Source: Sulfolobales archaeon (lineage in GTDB: Archaea > Thermoproteota > Thermoprotei_A > Sulfolobales > AG1). Taken from it: a stretch of 48,317 nucleotides of DNA. Positions 2,619-48,317 of this stretch are shown here, piece by piece. Below the pieces are notes generated by a model. The model worked only from the letters and a program-made list of their open reading frames with translations, made no database searches and was not told the origin of the DNA. Position 1 is the first letter of the stretch. Every line of letters starts with the position of its first letter. The stretch lies in NCBI GenBank assembly GCA_038867615.1, contig JAWBYA010000009.1, forward strand, positions 1 through 48,317, given 5' to 3'. Both the position numbers and the translations under genes were made by a program.

Positions 2619-2984
2619 AGGCATGGTTCTCTGGCATCTAGTTACTAGCCGTATGATTCATACTTAATAGCGATGAGTATTACTATAATAAATATTTGGT
2701 TGCTCTGTCTCCAGCTTCGTAGCCTTTTCTTTGCCAGAATAATGGGGAAACAGTAATACCATGTTTATTCTGAGCATCGTGTTTGATGAATTATACTCCT
2801 GTTTATCGAATTCGGAGTGGCATATCATGCACGATGGATATTCAGTGCTTGTGCCTCTTTGGTACACCCACATTATTGATAGGTTTGAAGATATGTTTAT
2901 AGTTTCCCATAGACGTTCTATTTATTTTTAGCCATGGCGTTTCTCAAAAGGTTCTTTGGCTATTGATATGATCCTGAGCTAAAA

Positions 2985-3000
2985 GCTAACCAAATATAAC
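2985..3000 (+). promoter_or_regulatory. BRE/TATA-like promoter of the tRNA-Gln 5' half
   Basis: AATATAA at 2993-2999, 26-32 nt upstream of tRNA position 1 (3025). Confidence 0.55.
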
Positions 3001-3024
3001 CCCTTTTGATAATACATTACTTGG

Positions 3025-3081
3025 AGCCGGGTAGTCTAGCGGACAAGGATGCGGGGCTTTGGCCAGGCTGCGCCGCCCCCG
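3025..3081 (+). tRNA. tRNA-Gln(UUG) 5' half (positions 1-37 = 3025..3062) plus GC-rich trailer; candidate split tRNA
   Basis: AGCCGGG acceptor 5' strand, TA, D-arm GTCT/GGAT, anticodon stem CGGGG, loop CT-TTG-G; no T-arm or acceptor 3' strand follows. Confidence 0.8.
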
Positions 3082-3429
3082 TGCTCTAATCTATGCTGTT
3101 TCTTGGTGATATTTATGGTAGAGGGTTTGTTTTGAATAGGACAGTTTGACCAATGATATGGTCTCCATATCGTCTCTAGACGGCATGGATCAATATTCTT
3201 ACCACTACCTAGAGAATGATCCCCTAGTGAGTGTGATGCTCCATGCTCTTTGGCTCAAAGCAACTCACGATCCCATAAAATACAAATCCCTGAGGGCTAG
3301 GTAGAACTCTTTTGACTATTGCTAATATGCTTTTAATTCTTCTATCAAGGGACAAGCGGTTTATAAAAGGTTGATATGAATGTATGGGTAGGGGATCTTA
3401 TGGCTCTTTCTTTAAAGCAACCAATGTGC

Positions 3430-5529
3430 TTATCTCTTTATGATCACTCTGACCAGGGGTTGTGGTAGGGGCTCATAGGGTCTGCCCACTCCCTGGTAGA
3501 ATTTGCTGAACATTTCATAGAGGTGGAGCCTTAGTGTGTGGGCAAATGCGACTATAGACTCTAGCCCTAGATCCAGTAGGTTCCCTAATGCGTAGAGGAT
3601 CCATGCTGGTATTGCTACCACCCCACCGCTTTCTATCAAGGCGGCGACGGGGTGGTAGAAGGCTATGATTACTGCTATGTGTGCGAGAGCTATACCCATG
3701 ATCCTTAGATAGCTTATCGTATTTCCAATCAGTATGAGGATACCGTCAAAGAATTCCATAAAGCTGTTGGATATGCTTCTCAACCCCTCTCTCACGCCAT
3801 GCTCTATAGATTTAATTACTACTTCTCCCAGCAATATCCATATTAGCCCTATGAATAGCATTATTCTCGCTACTTCTGCTATATATCCAGGTGGGGAGGC
3901 GCCTGGCAGCGAGGCTATGTAGTAGTATGTTGCACCCACGGCCTCTATATTCTGGTAAGCGAACAGCGGTATTGTTATTGAGAGGAATAACAATAGCCTT
4001 GGTATGTCTCTAACAAGCATCTTCTCGATATCCCTCTCGATCATTGAATTAATAAGCCCTAGCAGTGTTGAAGCGGTGAGGGTTGCTCCCCCTATTCTTA
4101 GCGATATGAAGATCAGGAGTATAACGGCATTTCTGGCAGCGTCTTGAGAGGCTTCACCACCTATTGGGATAGCCAGCGGGGGTTTCATGTGGAGTGCTTC
4201 TTCGTACCAGTGCTCAAGAGCTTTGGCGACGGGCGTGGCTGGTCCGAAAAACTCGGCTGATAGCAATCCGGTTATTATAGCGGCTATCGATATGTATATC
4301 ACGATTTCTCCCAAACTCTTGTAGGAACTATTTGTTCTCCCAATTACTTTATAGAATAAGAGCCCAGCTATTAGTAGTACGATTCCATGTCCGAGGTCTG
4401 GGAACATGAGGCCAAAGATCAGGGGAAATGTTATTGTGGTTATATATATGGGGATCACCTCTCTATAGCTTGGAGGACCGTAGAGTTCTGAGACCATTTT
4501 AAACACCTCAAGCCTCTTTGGTATTGAGTATTTCGATGGGGGTTCTTCGTCGAGGTTCTTTTCAAGCCTGCCTATCTCCCTTACCTCTATTGTGGCATTA
4601 TCGCCGAGTCTTTCCCTTAGCAGCTTTAGTGATGGCTCAAGCCTGCTTTTGGGTATATAGCCCTCTATAACGGAGTATCTCCCTTTATCCTTTGTCCTCG
4701 AGATTAGGTGGAGGGCTTCTCTAGCCGTTTTTAGCCCTGCGTATGTAGTTATAAACTCTTTGGAGACTTCTTGGAAGATCTTTCTGGCTGTTTCTCTTAT
4801 CGCATTTAGCTCCGATCTAGCTTCGCTAAGCTCTTTAGCTATCTGATCAGCAAGAACCCTAGGATTAGTTGGATAGCCTTTCGGGATCTCCAGCTCCCTG
4901 GCTCTCTCTACCCTTAGTATATCTCCCATCTCCTCATCAATTCTCTTGGTCACTATAAGTAGAACAGAGTTATCCTGATCCAGTTCCTTTTCGACTGCTA
5001 GGTATAGCTTGTTCCTTTTCTCTACAGCCCCCAGGATTCTCGGTACCCTATCCTTTGGAGAGATGATTAGATAGGCCTTCAAAATATCTCCATCAAGGAT
5101 CCCGTTGAGATCTACGTCAAACTCTCTTAACACATTCATAGCCATACCTAGAGGCTCTAACCTCGAGATCTTATCCTGCAGATCCCTTGCTTTTCTATAG
5201 ATATCATCGAATCTTTTATCAAGATCCTTTACCCTCTCAAGAAGTTTCACCGTTATTTCAAACCATCCGCTCCCCTCCACTGAATGATCTGATGGAGATG
5301 TGGAAATAACATTGCTGGGATAGCCTGAAAGCTGCATGTATTGTTCTAACCTGTTTATGGCCTCATTAACGCTAGGGATCATTATTCTTGCTCTCTCAAC
5401 ATCCTTACCCTCACCGATCCTTGATACAGGTTGGAAAGCCCCTGTGTCTAGCAATGCTTGAACCGCTATATCAAGATCCTTTTTAGAGATCAGCATAGAG
5501 ATCCTAACCATTCTCTCCGGCAGAAGCAC
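3430..5529 (-). CDS. atpI: A1A0 ATP synthase subunit I (a)
   Basis: N-terminal PERMVRISM, FGLMFPDLGHG, GNTISYLRIMG with the essential Arg, HTLRLHLYEMFSKFY. Confidence 0.95.
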   Translation of the reverse strand: MLLPERMVRISMLISKKDLDIAVQALLDTGAFQPVSRIGEGKDVERARIMIPSVNEAINRLEQYMQLSGYPSNVISTSPSDHSVEGSGWFEITVKLLERVKDLDKRFDDIYRKARDLQDKISRLEPLGMAMNVLREFDVDLNGILDGDILKAYLIISPKDRVPRILGAVEKRNKLYLAVEKELDQDNSVLLIVTKRIDEEMGDILRVERARELEIPKGYPTNPRVLADQIAKELSEARSELNAIRETARKIFQEVSKEFITTYAGLKTAREALHLISRTKDKGRYSVIEGYIPKSRLEPSLKLLRERLGDNATIEVREIGRLEKNLDEEPPSKYSIPKRLEVFKMVSELYGPPSYREVIPIYITTITFPLIFGLMFPDLGHGIVLLIAGLLFYKVIGRTNSSYKSLGEIVIYISIAAIITGLLSAEFFGPATPVAKALEHWYEEALHMKPPLAIPIGGEASQDAARNAVILLIFISLRIGGATLTASTLLGLINSMIERDIEKMLVRDIPRLLLFLSITIPLFAYQNIEAVGATYYYIASLPGASPPGYIAEVARIMLFIGLIWILLGEVVIKSIEHGVREGLRSISNSFMEFFDGILILIGNTISYLRIMGIALAHIAVIIAFYHPVAALIESGGVVAIPAWILYALGNLLDLGLESIVAFAHTLRLHLYEMFSKFYQGVGRPYEPLPQPLVRVIIKR

Positions 5530-6546: not shown

Positions 6547-8325
6547 TTGCAGGAGAGGAAGGGGAGGGTAATAAGGATTAGTGGAAGCCTCGTAGTAGCT
6601 GAAGGATTACCAATGCCCCAGATGTACGAGGTAGCCGAGGTTGGGGAGCAAAGACTCGTGGGAGAGATTGTGAGAATAGATGGTGATAGATCCTATATAC
6701 AGGTCTATGAATCCACATCCGGCTTGAGACCAGGCGAGCCTGTATATGGAACAGGCTCTCCGCTATCTGTAGAACTGGGTCCAGGCCTAATAGGCCAGAT
6801 CTTCGACGGGATCCAGAGACCACTCAAAAGAATAGCTGAGTCTAGCAAGAGTATTTTCGTGTTGAGGGGAGTTAAGCTTGATGCTGTTCCGAGGGATAGG
6901 AGGTATGTATTCACCCCGTCGAAGGAGTTAAAGCCTGGTGATAAGGTTGGGCCTGGCGATATCATAGGCTATGTTGACGAGACCCCGCTTATAAGGCACT
7001 GGGTTATGATCCCACATGGGGTTAGTGGTAGGCTTATTGAGATCTCTTCCGAGGGAGATTATGGTGTGGAGGATCCCATAGCATATGTTGAGGCCGATGG
7101 TGAGAAGATAGCTGTAAGAATGTTGCAGAAATGGCCTGCTAGGAGGCCGAGGCCTTTTAAGGAGAAGCTAGAGCCAGAATTACCAATGCTTACTGGAATG
7201 AGGATCTTGGATACTTTGTTCCCTATGGCGAAGGGAGGTACAGGGGCTATACCAGGAGGTTTCGGCACTGGAAAGACTGTTACTCTCCATAGCCTGGCTA
7301 TGTGGAGCGATGCTAAGGTTGTGATCTATATTGGGTGTGGGGAGAGGGGTAATGAGATGACTGAGGTTCTTGAGAAGTTCCCAACATATAAGGATCCGTG
7401 GAGTGGTAGGCCGCTGATGGAAAGGACGATATTGATCGCTAATACGAGTAATATGCCAGTGTCGGCTAGAGAGGCTAGCATATATGTTGGTGTGACCATG
7501 GCTGAGTATTATAGAGATATGGGTTATGATGTGCTTCTAGTAGCTGACTCCACTAGCAGATGGGCTGAGGCTCTCAGGGAGATTGCTGGCAGGCTTGAGG
7601 AGATGCCTGCCGAGGAGGGTTACCCAAGCTATCTACAGAGCAGGTTAGCCGAGTTCTATGAGAGGGCTGGTAGGGTTGTGGCTGTTGGAGAGCCTAAGAG
7701 GATAGGCTCGGTAACCCTGGTGGGGGCTGTCTCACCTCCTGGTGCTGATTTTACAGAGCCTGTTACAACCCATACCAGGAGGTTTATAAGGGTTTTCTGG
7801 GCTCTGGATACGGCTCTCGCGTATTCCAGGCACTATCCCGCTATAAATTGGATAACAAGCTACTCAGCATATGTGGATACTGTGAGTGGGTGGTGGGCTA
7901 GGAATGTTGATAAGGAATGGAGGGATCTGAGGGATAGCCTATACTCCATCCTCTTGAGGGAGAACGAGCTTAGAGAGATCGTGAGGCTGATCGGGCCTGA
8001 GAACCTGTCAGAGCCTGATAAGCTCATCATGGAGACTGCTAGGATCATTAGGGAGGGGTTCCTGAAGCAGAACGCCTATGATAAAATAGATGCATTCGCA
8101 TCGCCCCAGAAGCAGGTTAAGCTGATGAGGGCTATGGTCAACTTCTATAGAAATGCCAAGAAGCTAGTTGACTCTGGAGTACCTGTTAAGATTATCAGGG
8201 AGAAGACACAGGATCTCATAACAGAACTGATCAAGGCGAGATTCACTATACCCAACGAGGAGCTTGATAAGCTGGGCGAGCTTGAGAAGAGGATCGCTGA
8301 GAGATTGAGCCAGATAGGGGGGTGA
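6547..8325 (+). CDS. atpA: A1A0 ATP synthase subunit A (catalytic)
   Basis: P-loop [37 protein letters not shown]; no intein. Confidence 0.98.
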
Positions 8326-23192: not shown

Positions 23193-23273
<81 letters not shown>

Positions 23274-35293: not shown

Positions 35294-35695
35294 ATTCAGA
35301 TACGCTATGTGGAGTAAAAAAGTATAGGATCTCTCCGCCGGTTCTCCGAGACAAGTCCTAATCCGCCTAGGTCTCGATCTAGTTTGTCATTACGCATTGT
35401 GTTTATCCCTACTGGATCGTAGCTATCCACCATTAATTAGAAGCTAAAAACATTGTAGCCATGATATATTTTCACGCAAGGCGATAAAAAGATCTGTGGA
35501 AGGTTCTTAGCTGCTAACCACAGAACAGGGTGGAGCAACGTTTCAAGCATCTCCAGCACCTACTGAGTTTTATTTAAACGTGTTGGGCTTCCTTGCTGTG
35601 TGGTTTTGATTTCATCGCGGGTGATGCTGCGCCGCGTAAGAGCGATCTAATATAAACTCTTTAAATGATGTGATTTTTGATGATATCTGATCTAG

Positions 35696-35806
35696 CGCCG
35701 GGGGCGGGATTCGAACCCGCGCGGGGTGGGAGCCCCAGTGGGTCTCCCACGTTTTCTATGCTGGAGGTCTCGAGCCCACCCCCTTGGGCCGCTCGGGCAC
35801 CCCGGC
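35696..35806 (-). tRNA. tRNA-Ser(CGA) with a 25-nt intron at 37/38 (35744..35768)
   Basis: GCCGGGG/CCCCGGC acceptor, GTGGG-CTCGAG^A-CCCAC, long variable arm, GCGGG-TTCGAAT-CCCGC; relaxed BHB (CUCG/UGGG); CCA not encoded. Confidence 0.95.

Positions 35807-47274: not shown

Positions 47275-48317
<1,043 letters not shown>

Follow-up and report, generated by a model that had tools for sequence, protein, structure and literature searches.

The gene for tRNA-Gln(UUG) of this archaeon appears to be split, with a probability that we put at about 0.88: the transcript of a stand-alone 5' half would be trans-spliced with that of a 3' half encoded on another contig. The 5' half lies in the window (the whole 48,317-nt stretch of DNA that was analysed, which is contig C9 of the 28-contig assembly G000, 2.22 Mb in size, 94% complete and with 46% G+C), the 3' half on contig C5, and a stand-alone 5' half of tRNA-Gln(CUG) on contig C2. 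The case is made by these three pieces, the complementarity of their ends, promoter-like elements, a contiguous gene that was not found, and conservation of the arrangement with covariation among related genomes.

The 5' exon of tRNA-Gln(UUG), positions 1-37 of the tRNA, is read in the sequence at 3025..3062 on the plus strand, with the anticodon TTG at 3059-3061 and G37 at 3062. It comprises the acceptor strand AGCCGGG, the D-arm, the anticodon-stem strand CGGGG and the loop CUUUGG (C-U-UUG-G), and it shows 2 mismatches in 38 positions to the contiguous tRNA-Gln(UUG) gene of L011, a relative in the same family whose gene is called tRNA-Gln by ARAGORN. An earlier note on this DNA had described an intact tRNA-Gln 5' exon that stops at the 37/38 boundary and is followed by a 19-nt GC-rich trailer and then by AT-rich DNA, and the sequence is as described. 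The trailer, CCAGGCTGCGCCGCCCCCG, occupies 3063-3081 (+) and would be removed on the proposed splicing; its core GCGCCGCCCC at 3070-3079 (+) pairs with the leader GGGGCGGCGC at C5:102579-102588. A T-rich run read from the sequence, GTTTCTT at 3098..3104 (+), may act as a transcription stop. The stand-alone UUG 5' half is confirmed as real, and chance can be set aside. Standard searches pass over it: ARAGORN and Rfam run over the window gave tRNA-Val as the sole tRNA, with tRNA-Ser added once introns were allowed, and nothing at 3025-3062, and the Rfam tRNA model applied to 2900-3250 with E values up to 10 returned no tRNA, only two chance matches. The window also contains tRNA-Val(GAC) at 23193-23270 (-), tRNA-Ser(CGA) with a 25-nt intron at 35695-35806 (-), and the 5' two-thirds of a 16S rRNA gene at 47275-48317 (+), which runs past the window end.

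The partner pieces were located elsewhere in the same genome. BLAST of the region against its own genome revealed the 5' half of tRNA-Gln(CUG), starting at position 273527 of C2 and followed by the trailer CCCTCCGCGCCGCCCCCTG. A strict pattern for the 3' half with a 5-nt variable loop gave no match, and a looser pattern located the half at C5:102579-102634. The leader of this half, (A)GGGGCGGCGCGCCGGGGAGAA, spans C5:102579-102599, and the exon, C38 to A73 with CCA encoded, spans C5:102600-102634, so that the order is leader, C38, CCCCG, UGAC, T-arm, CCCGGCU, A73 and encoded CCA. This is the partner that the earlier note had predicted, with CCCCG, T-arm, CCCGGCT and A73 in place, a leader complementary to the trailer (GGGGCGGCGC for GCGCCGCCCC) and, before the exon, the purine 4-mer GGAG, which can pair with C32-U35. 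The 3' exon has no mismatch in 36 positions to the contiguous L011 gene; both exons were compared with that gene piece by piece, without building a joined sequence. BLAST places the 5' half at two positions in the genome and the 3' half at one, on C5, which bears out the claim that the T-arm and 3' strand are absent from the window; no 3' half for tRNA-Gln was found within the window, not even in the 45 kb that follow the 5' half on this contig. That the CUG 5' half would use the same 3' half on C5, and that relatives conserve the arrangement with covariation, was beyond what a reader of the window could see.

The three Gln pieces lie at separate loci (C9:3025, C2:273527 and C5:102579), and no contiguous tRNA-Gln gene was found on the 28 contigs by ARAGORN with introns, by Infernal with RF00005 or by BLAST. 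Infernal gave 43 matches above the cut-off, with no Gln anticodon among those read; the ambiguous ones were read as Met/Ile2-CAU, His, Pro-CGG, Pro-GGG, Gly-GCC and Glu-CUC. ARAGORN without introns reported nothing at any of the three pieces. With introns it proposed a "tRNA-Asp(gtc) with 134-nt intron" at C5:102408-102637, which was rejected as a false joining of unrelated upstream DNA to the Gln 3' half. The 94% completeness of the assembly leaves room for a contiguous gene, but this is offset by G023, a complete genome with the same layout. At C10:41191-41241 (-) the end of the contig truncates a tRNA with anticodon GCC (Gly-like), which would be a second copy besides the one at C1:488113-488188.

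Elements that insert into the genomes of these archaea commonly use tRNA genes as targets and leave partial copies behind. The window piece could on that account be a dead tRNA fragment at the att site of an integrated virus or plasmid, with the working tRNA-Gln elsewhere, perhaps in the part of the genome that the 94% complete assembly lacks. We regard this as highly improbable. Neither a duplicate intact tRNA-Gln gene nor a mobile element accompanies the piece, although the earlier note had pointed to an intact copy elsewhere, with an integrase between the copies, as the finding that would speak against a split gene. The neighbours are housekeeping genes, namely those for prolyl-tRNA synthetase (160-1611, -), A-type ATPase subunit I (3430-5529, -) and A-type ATPase subunit A (6547-8325, +), with no integrase among them. 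The UUG piece has a promoter-like element of its own, its trailer core GCGCCGCCCC is kept in all 5 other genomes of the genus, the complement of that core precedes the lone 3' half, and the layout recurs in the one-contig genome G023.

The assembly at the site is well supported. Contigs of three independent runs from three studies span it (2767-3500, 2767-3478 and 2958-3500) with 0 differences, and other contigs in the three runs match the exon only and then enter the CUG trailer or the trailer of a relative. The chimera at about 3081 that had been raised as a danger is thus not seen; there is no break, and the contigs of the three runs agree. These contigs also bear on the suggestion that the gene is an ordinary intron-containing one, either misassembled or with a very long intron reaching beyond the region read. 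Long cis forms do exist in the order, since in G028 and G029 the same strand carries both exons, at a spacing of about 157 and 745 nt, respectively. Here, no 3' exon follows on the same strand over the 45 kb downstream, the sole 3' half is 102 kb inside another contig, and a further genome, G143, has its two CUG halves 32 kb from each other and on opposite strands. An ordinary intron-containing gene is for these reasons the least probable of the explanations considered. The split gene remains the reading that we prefer, and its three pieces were examined for signals of separate transcription.

A promoter weight matrix was built from positions -46..-19 of 42 tRNA genes of the genome, which gave the consensus GCTTAAAAGCC, mostly starting at -36 to -31; a matrix over the whole 50 nt upstream was dropped because, along with the TATA box, it captured AT-rich sequence close to the start. 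The TATA-like box that the earlier note had placed upstream of the UUG half is the TATA/BRE-like element AAATATAACCC at 2992..3002 (+), a predicted promoter that scores 11.2 at -33, the commonest distance, a score reached by 8 of 10000 random genomic windows. The 3' half scores 11.7 at -31 (6 of 10000 windows as high) and the CUG half 7.8 at -31 (162 of 10000), and the leave-one-out median of the tRNA genes is 8.0. With tRNA-type motifs at all three, each piece looks like a transcription unit of its own, and the motifs probably function as promoters. In L041 (in G021), L087 and L177, a stand-alone 3' half starts about 45-50 nt past the 3' end of another tRNA on the same strand, and there it may be co-transcribed with that tRNA without a promoter of its own.

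Both the UUG and the CUG trailers contain GCGCCGCCCC, to which the leader core GGGGCGGCGC is exactly complementary. Over both strands of the 2.2-Mb genome the 10-mer core occurs 3 times, always at a Gln piece (1.95 occurrences expected from composition), and the exact 10-bp core grows to an 11-nt run if G-U pairs are allowed. Shuffled trailers of the same composition reached the observed pairing run in 105 of 5000 trials for the UUG half and in 26 of 5000 for the CUG half. The complementarity is therefore only moderately significant in this single genome, and we rely instead on covariation across lineages. In the contiguous genes of relatives CUUUGG is followed directly by CCCCCGUGACC, so that the mature junction is G37/C38, and this junction sets the register of the bulge-helix-bulge (BHB). 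A cloverleaf with an hBHBh' motif can be drawn for both the UUG and the CUG pair with every proposed pair standard. It has the anticodon stem 27-31/39-43, a central 4-bp helix between C32-U33-N34-U35 and the leader GGAG (CUNU:GGAG), and bulges G36-G37/C and A-A/C38. On the window side, the 5' strand of the proposed central helix is C32-U33-U34-U35 at 3057..3060 (+), where 4 of 4 pairs with the C5 leader are standard, and the proposed 3-nt bulge is at 3061..3063 (+), with a cut by the endonuclease predicted between 3062 and 3063 from the orthologue junction and the drawn structure. GGAG pairs with the CUCU of the CUG half as well; the G opposite position 34 accepts U34 as well as C34 as its partner, so that both isoacceptors can share a single 3' half. 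In the CUG pair the outer helix consists of 2 bp, a 2x2 loop and 11 bp. In the UUG pair it is irregular beside the bulge: an A/G mismatch separates 1 bp from the next 3 bp, and a bulged U and 10 bp follow. The earlier note had cautioned that the CCCCG ending the trailer could close the anticodon stem in cis. This caution can be dropped, as the closing G is missing from the trailers of G001 and G005 and no T-arm follows any trailer.

By the known split-tRNA route of leader/trailer annealing, BHB cleavage and ligation, which we infer for this gene, the region 3025-3081 would act as an independently transcribed gene for the UUG 5' half. The GC-rich trailer of its transcript would anneal to the leader of the 3'-half transcript from C5, and the annealed pair would fold into the cloverleaf with the BHB at 37/38. 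A splicing endonuclease of the EndA family would then cleave at each bulge, after which RtcB would ligate G37 with C38. The genome encodes two EndA-family proteins (PF01974, 112 and 31 bits; genes at C1:316186-316440 and C2:116528-116761), which presumably form an (alpha-beta)2 enzyme, and one RtcB (577 bits). Transcription, annealing, cleavage and ligation of the Gln pieces are accordingly all plausible steps. The calculated energies of the drawn BHB were -62.3 kcal/mol for the UUG pair and -65.0 kcal/mol for the CUG pair, versus -75.6 and -74.2 kcal/mol for the respective minimum-energy folds, so the drawn structure is feasible yet not what the energy model prefers. When the UUG halves are cofolded, the minimum-energy structure does contain the acceptor, anticodon and T stems, each formed between the two strands.

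These energies, and the fact that ligation is deduced, leave a small chance that the pieces are real and transcribed but not ligated, acting instead as independent small RNAs or as a two-piece tRNA with a nick, or with Gln codons read in some other way. We consider this quite unlikely. The BHB register gives exactly the G37/C38 junction of the contiguous orthologues, the sequence RGAG plus two nucleotides plus C38 is the same in relatives with cis introns, which must be spliced, and both EndA and RtcB are encoded in the genome. Trans-splicing of such halves has in addition been shown experimentally in Nanoarchaeum equitans, according to the available parts of PMC4390854 and PMC4033280.

Joining of the halves by trans-splicing agrees with the distribution of the pieces among related genomes. 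The comparison set contained 41 genomes, this one and 40 of the same order, which were sorted by coordinates and, where fetched, by sequence. Two stand-alone 5' halves with a single distant 3' half are present in 9 of the 41 (G000-G003, G005, G007, G009, G023 and G033), and G004, which is 81% complete, has the stand-alone UUG half only. Four genomes (G008, G010, G012 and G021) combine a contiguous UUG gene with a split CUG gene. In G006 and G013 (71% complete) a stand-alone 3' half was seen but no 5' partner for it; G028 and G029 show the one-strand exons described above, with complementary ends. Only contiguous genes, intronless or with short introns, are found in 23 of the 41. In G023, where the complete chromosome is a single contig, the 5' halves are at about 963 kb and about 102 kb and the 3' half at about 1009 kb. 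The three-piece layout is also found in G171, G172 and G174 (genus g62) and in G139, and in G143 the CUG gene is split. An order-wide survey of 256 genomes, 238 of them with a match, was used for per-genome counts only; it gave a single 3' half per genome in 9 of 9 members of g62 and in 4 of 4 of g13 plus g20.

The pairing sequences vary by lineage and the complementarity is retained. For 21 cognate pairs, taken from 12 genomes, the longest run over which trailer and leader pair is 11-16; in 185 between-lineage pairs it averages 7.0 with a maximum of 14, which some of those pairs reach. Trailer and leader read GCGCCGCCCC and GGGGCGGCGC in g1, GCCGCCACCGCC and GGCGGTGGCGGC in g3, CCGCCACCGCCTC and GAGGCGGTGGCGG in G008, CCGCCACCGTCTCT and AGAGACGGTGGCGG in G012, CACAACTGCCCTCC and GGAGGGCAGTTGTG in G010, CTCCTCTCCTCCC and GGGAGGAGAGGAG in G023, and CCTCCTCAACCCCC and GGGGGTTGAGGAGG in G033. 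A clear compensatory change, C:G to U:A, separates G008 from G012, and another separates G171 from G172 (GCCGCC/GGCGGC versus GCCGCT/AGCGGC). The 3' side of the BHB (RGAG, two nucleotides and C38) is identical in split genes and in their cis-intron relatives, and the CUG trailer of the present genome begins with CCCTCCG, resembling the intron of G034. Both features are consistent with an intron-containing ancestor of the split gene, which on this sequence comparison is the probable origin.

A degenerate pattern combining the 3' BHB side with the 3' exon was also applied to a collection of species genomes and gave 103 matching stretches, of which 80 were classified. Among these 80 of the 103 matches, 20 are lone 3' halves whose available upstream DNA lacks a 5' exon, 7 have a 5' exon 97-1942 nt upstream on the same strand, and 53 are contiguous genes with short introns. 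The titles of the matched records name mostly uncultured Desulfurococcales, Sulfolobales and Desulfurococcaceae archaea and one uncultured Ignisphaera sp.; the public record of a cultured and named organism, Ignicoccus pacificus DSM 13166 (L087), contains a stand-alone 3' half. Exons 150-1900 nt apart on one strand were observed in L176 (G028) and L034 (G029) and also in L075, L096, L118, L139 and L143, with complementary GC-rich ends and a TATA-like sequence before the 3' exon. Such spaced exons may be separated by long introns or may be adjacent split halves, a possible intermediate stage. The tRNA-Gln genes of L066 (G010), L037 (G016), L046 (G027) and several other loci carry a non-canonical intron in the anticodon stem and loop (GGGGC/AGG...), which occurs alone or together with the 37/38 intron.

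tRNA-Asp(GUC) is likewise missing from the standard tRNA calls of this genome, and in this genus it seems to be made of three separately encoded pieces joined at 32/33 and 37/38. The first piece, P1, has exon 1-32 and a GC-rich trailer (C2:58285-58346, +; L189). P2 has a leader ending in CCCGAA, the 5-nt exon TGTCG (33-37) and a trailer (C5:659-708, +; L184), and P3 has a leader ending in GCGGAT and an exon from A38 to G73 plus CCA (C2:139479-139555, -; L213). The P1 trailer pairs with the P2 leader over 12 bp including one G-U, and the P2 trailer with the P3 leader over 13 exact bp. At 32/33 the central helix of the BHB, CGGG:CCCG, is perfect, and at 37/38 the BHB is relaxed, with 3 of 4 pairs and with wobbles. 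The middle exon and BHB registers initially chosen (38/39) did not pair, and the junctions were given by the same gene in G007 and G009, where it is in cis with two introns at exactly the 32/33 and 37/38 positions; the ends of these introns resemble the leaders and trailers of P1-P3. Of the 6 genomes of the genus, 5 have P2, which none of the other 35 genomes searched contains, and comparison of G000 with G001 shows covariation in the P1/P2 helix. For P1, P2 and P3 the promoter scores are 10.6, 7.1 and 8.2, respectively. In the openly accessible text of the papers searched, no tri-split tRNA outside Caldivirga was found. If the assignment is true, this tRNA-Asp with its 5-nt middle exon would be only the second tri-split tRNA known.

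A broader reading, to which we give even odds, is that tRNA-Gln has been split recurrently across the order, with every stage present among living relatives and the stages spread over at least four families, that Gln-UUG, Gln-CUG and Asp-GUC of this genus are made from six transcripts, and that the split forms were fixed by selection. The stages would be a short intron at 37/38, exons 150-1900 nt apart, and halves separated by tens to hundreds of kb or lying on opposite strands. Repeated fixation of split tRNAs, if true, would point to selection rather than accident, for example selection that disfavours the integration of elements into tRNA genes. The origin of tRNA genes and the links among introns, mobile elements and gene fragmentation are questions to which split tRNA genes are relevant, and because every intermediate stage occurs in related genomes, the scenario of genes split late, from introns, is directly testable. 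The case adds a new split isotype and junction for Thermoproteota, found throughout a genus and in several other families, and natural covariation supports the pairing model. Since standard tRNA finders overlook both tRNA-Gln genes of this genome and ARAGORN supplies a false tRNA-Asp, the annotations and tRNA-based quality scores of these archaea are predictably wrong.

Published inventories count 29 trans-spliced tRNA genes in seven genomes (available text of PMC4390854 and of the 2014 review PMC4033280). The part of PMC3218864 at hand describes split tRNA-Asp in Aeropyrum and Thermosphaera and split tRNA-Lys in Staphylothermus, and states that no others turned up when the crenarchaeal genomes of the time were examined again. 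In the openly accessible text of the papers searched, no split tRNA-Gln outside N. equitans was found, nor does one appear in the corresponding portions of PMC8450103, PMC3655853, PMC7080975, PMC10714607 and PMC12397907. The earlier note had proposed a new split tRNA, and this stands for the isotype and the junction, which are new for the clade. A split tRNA-Gln(UUG) as such is already on record in N. equitans, joined at 32/33 (PMC3218864, in the part available). What is new is the Gln isotype with a 37/38 junction in this clade, the 3' half common to two Gln isoacceptors, and the wide occurrence of the arrangement together with its covariation.

The closest known counterpart is tRNA-Glu(UUC/CUC) of N. 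equitans, which on the available text of PMC3218864, PMC4390854 and PMC4033280 also has two 5' halves differing at position 34 and one shared 3' half, GC-rich complementary leader and trailer, and a 37/38 junction. The present case differs in being Gln rather than Glu, in belonging to a 2.2-Mb archaeon, of the Desulfurococcales/Sulfolobales group to judge by its near relatives, rather than a reduced symbiont, and in a layout that is common to the whole genus and to other families. The tRNA-Gln(UUG) of N. equitans has the same isotype and anticodon and is likewise encoded as two separate halves, (PMC3218864), but its junction is at 32/33 instead of 37/38, its 3' half is not shared, and the lineage is unrelated. 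The tRNA-Asp of Aeropyrum and Thermosphaera and the tRNA-Lys of Staphylothermus come from the same broad clade, with a 37/38 junction in the case of Asp, and the same part of that source interprets them as recent splits derived from introns. According to it their halves lie side by side or a few kb apart, whereas here they are on different contigs and in G023 they are 46-900 kb apart; the isotype here is moreover Gln, and one 3' half serves two isoacceptors. Caldivirga maquilingensis is also a free-living crenarchaeon with pieces common to isoacceptors, and its leaders resemble introns of relatives, as they do here (PMC4390854 and PMC4033280, as far as their available text goes). In those same portions its split tRNAs are of Gly, Ala and Glu isotypes and it belongs to a different order, and the tri-split tRNA proposed here is tRNA-Asp.
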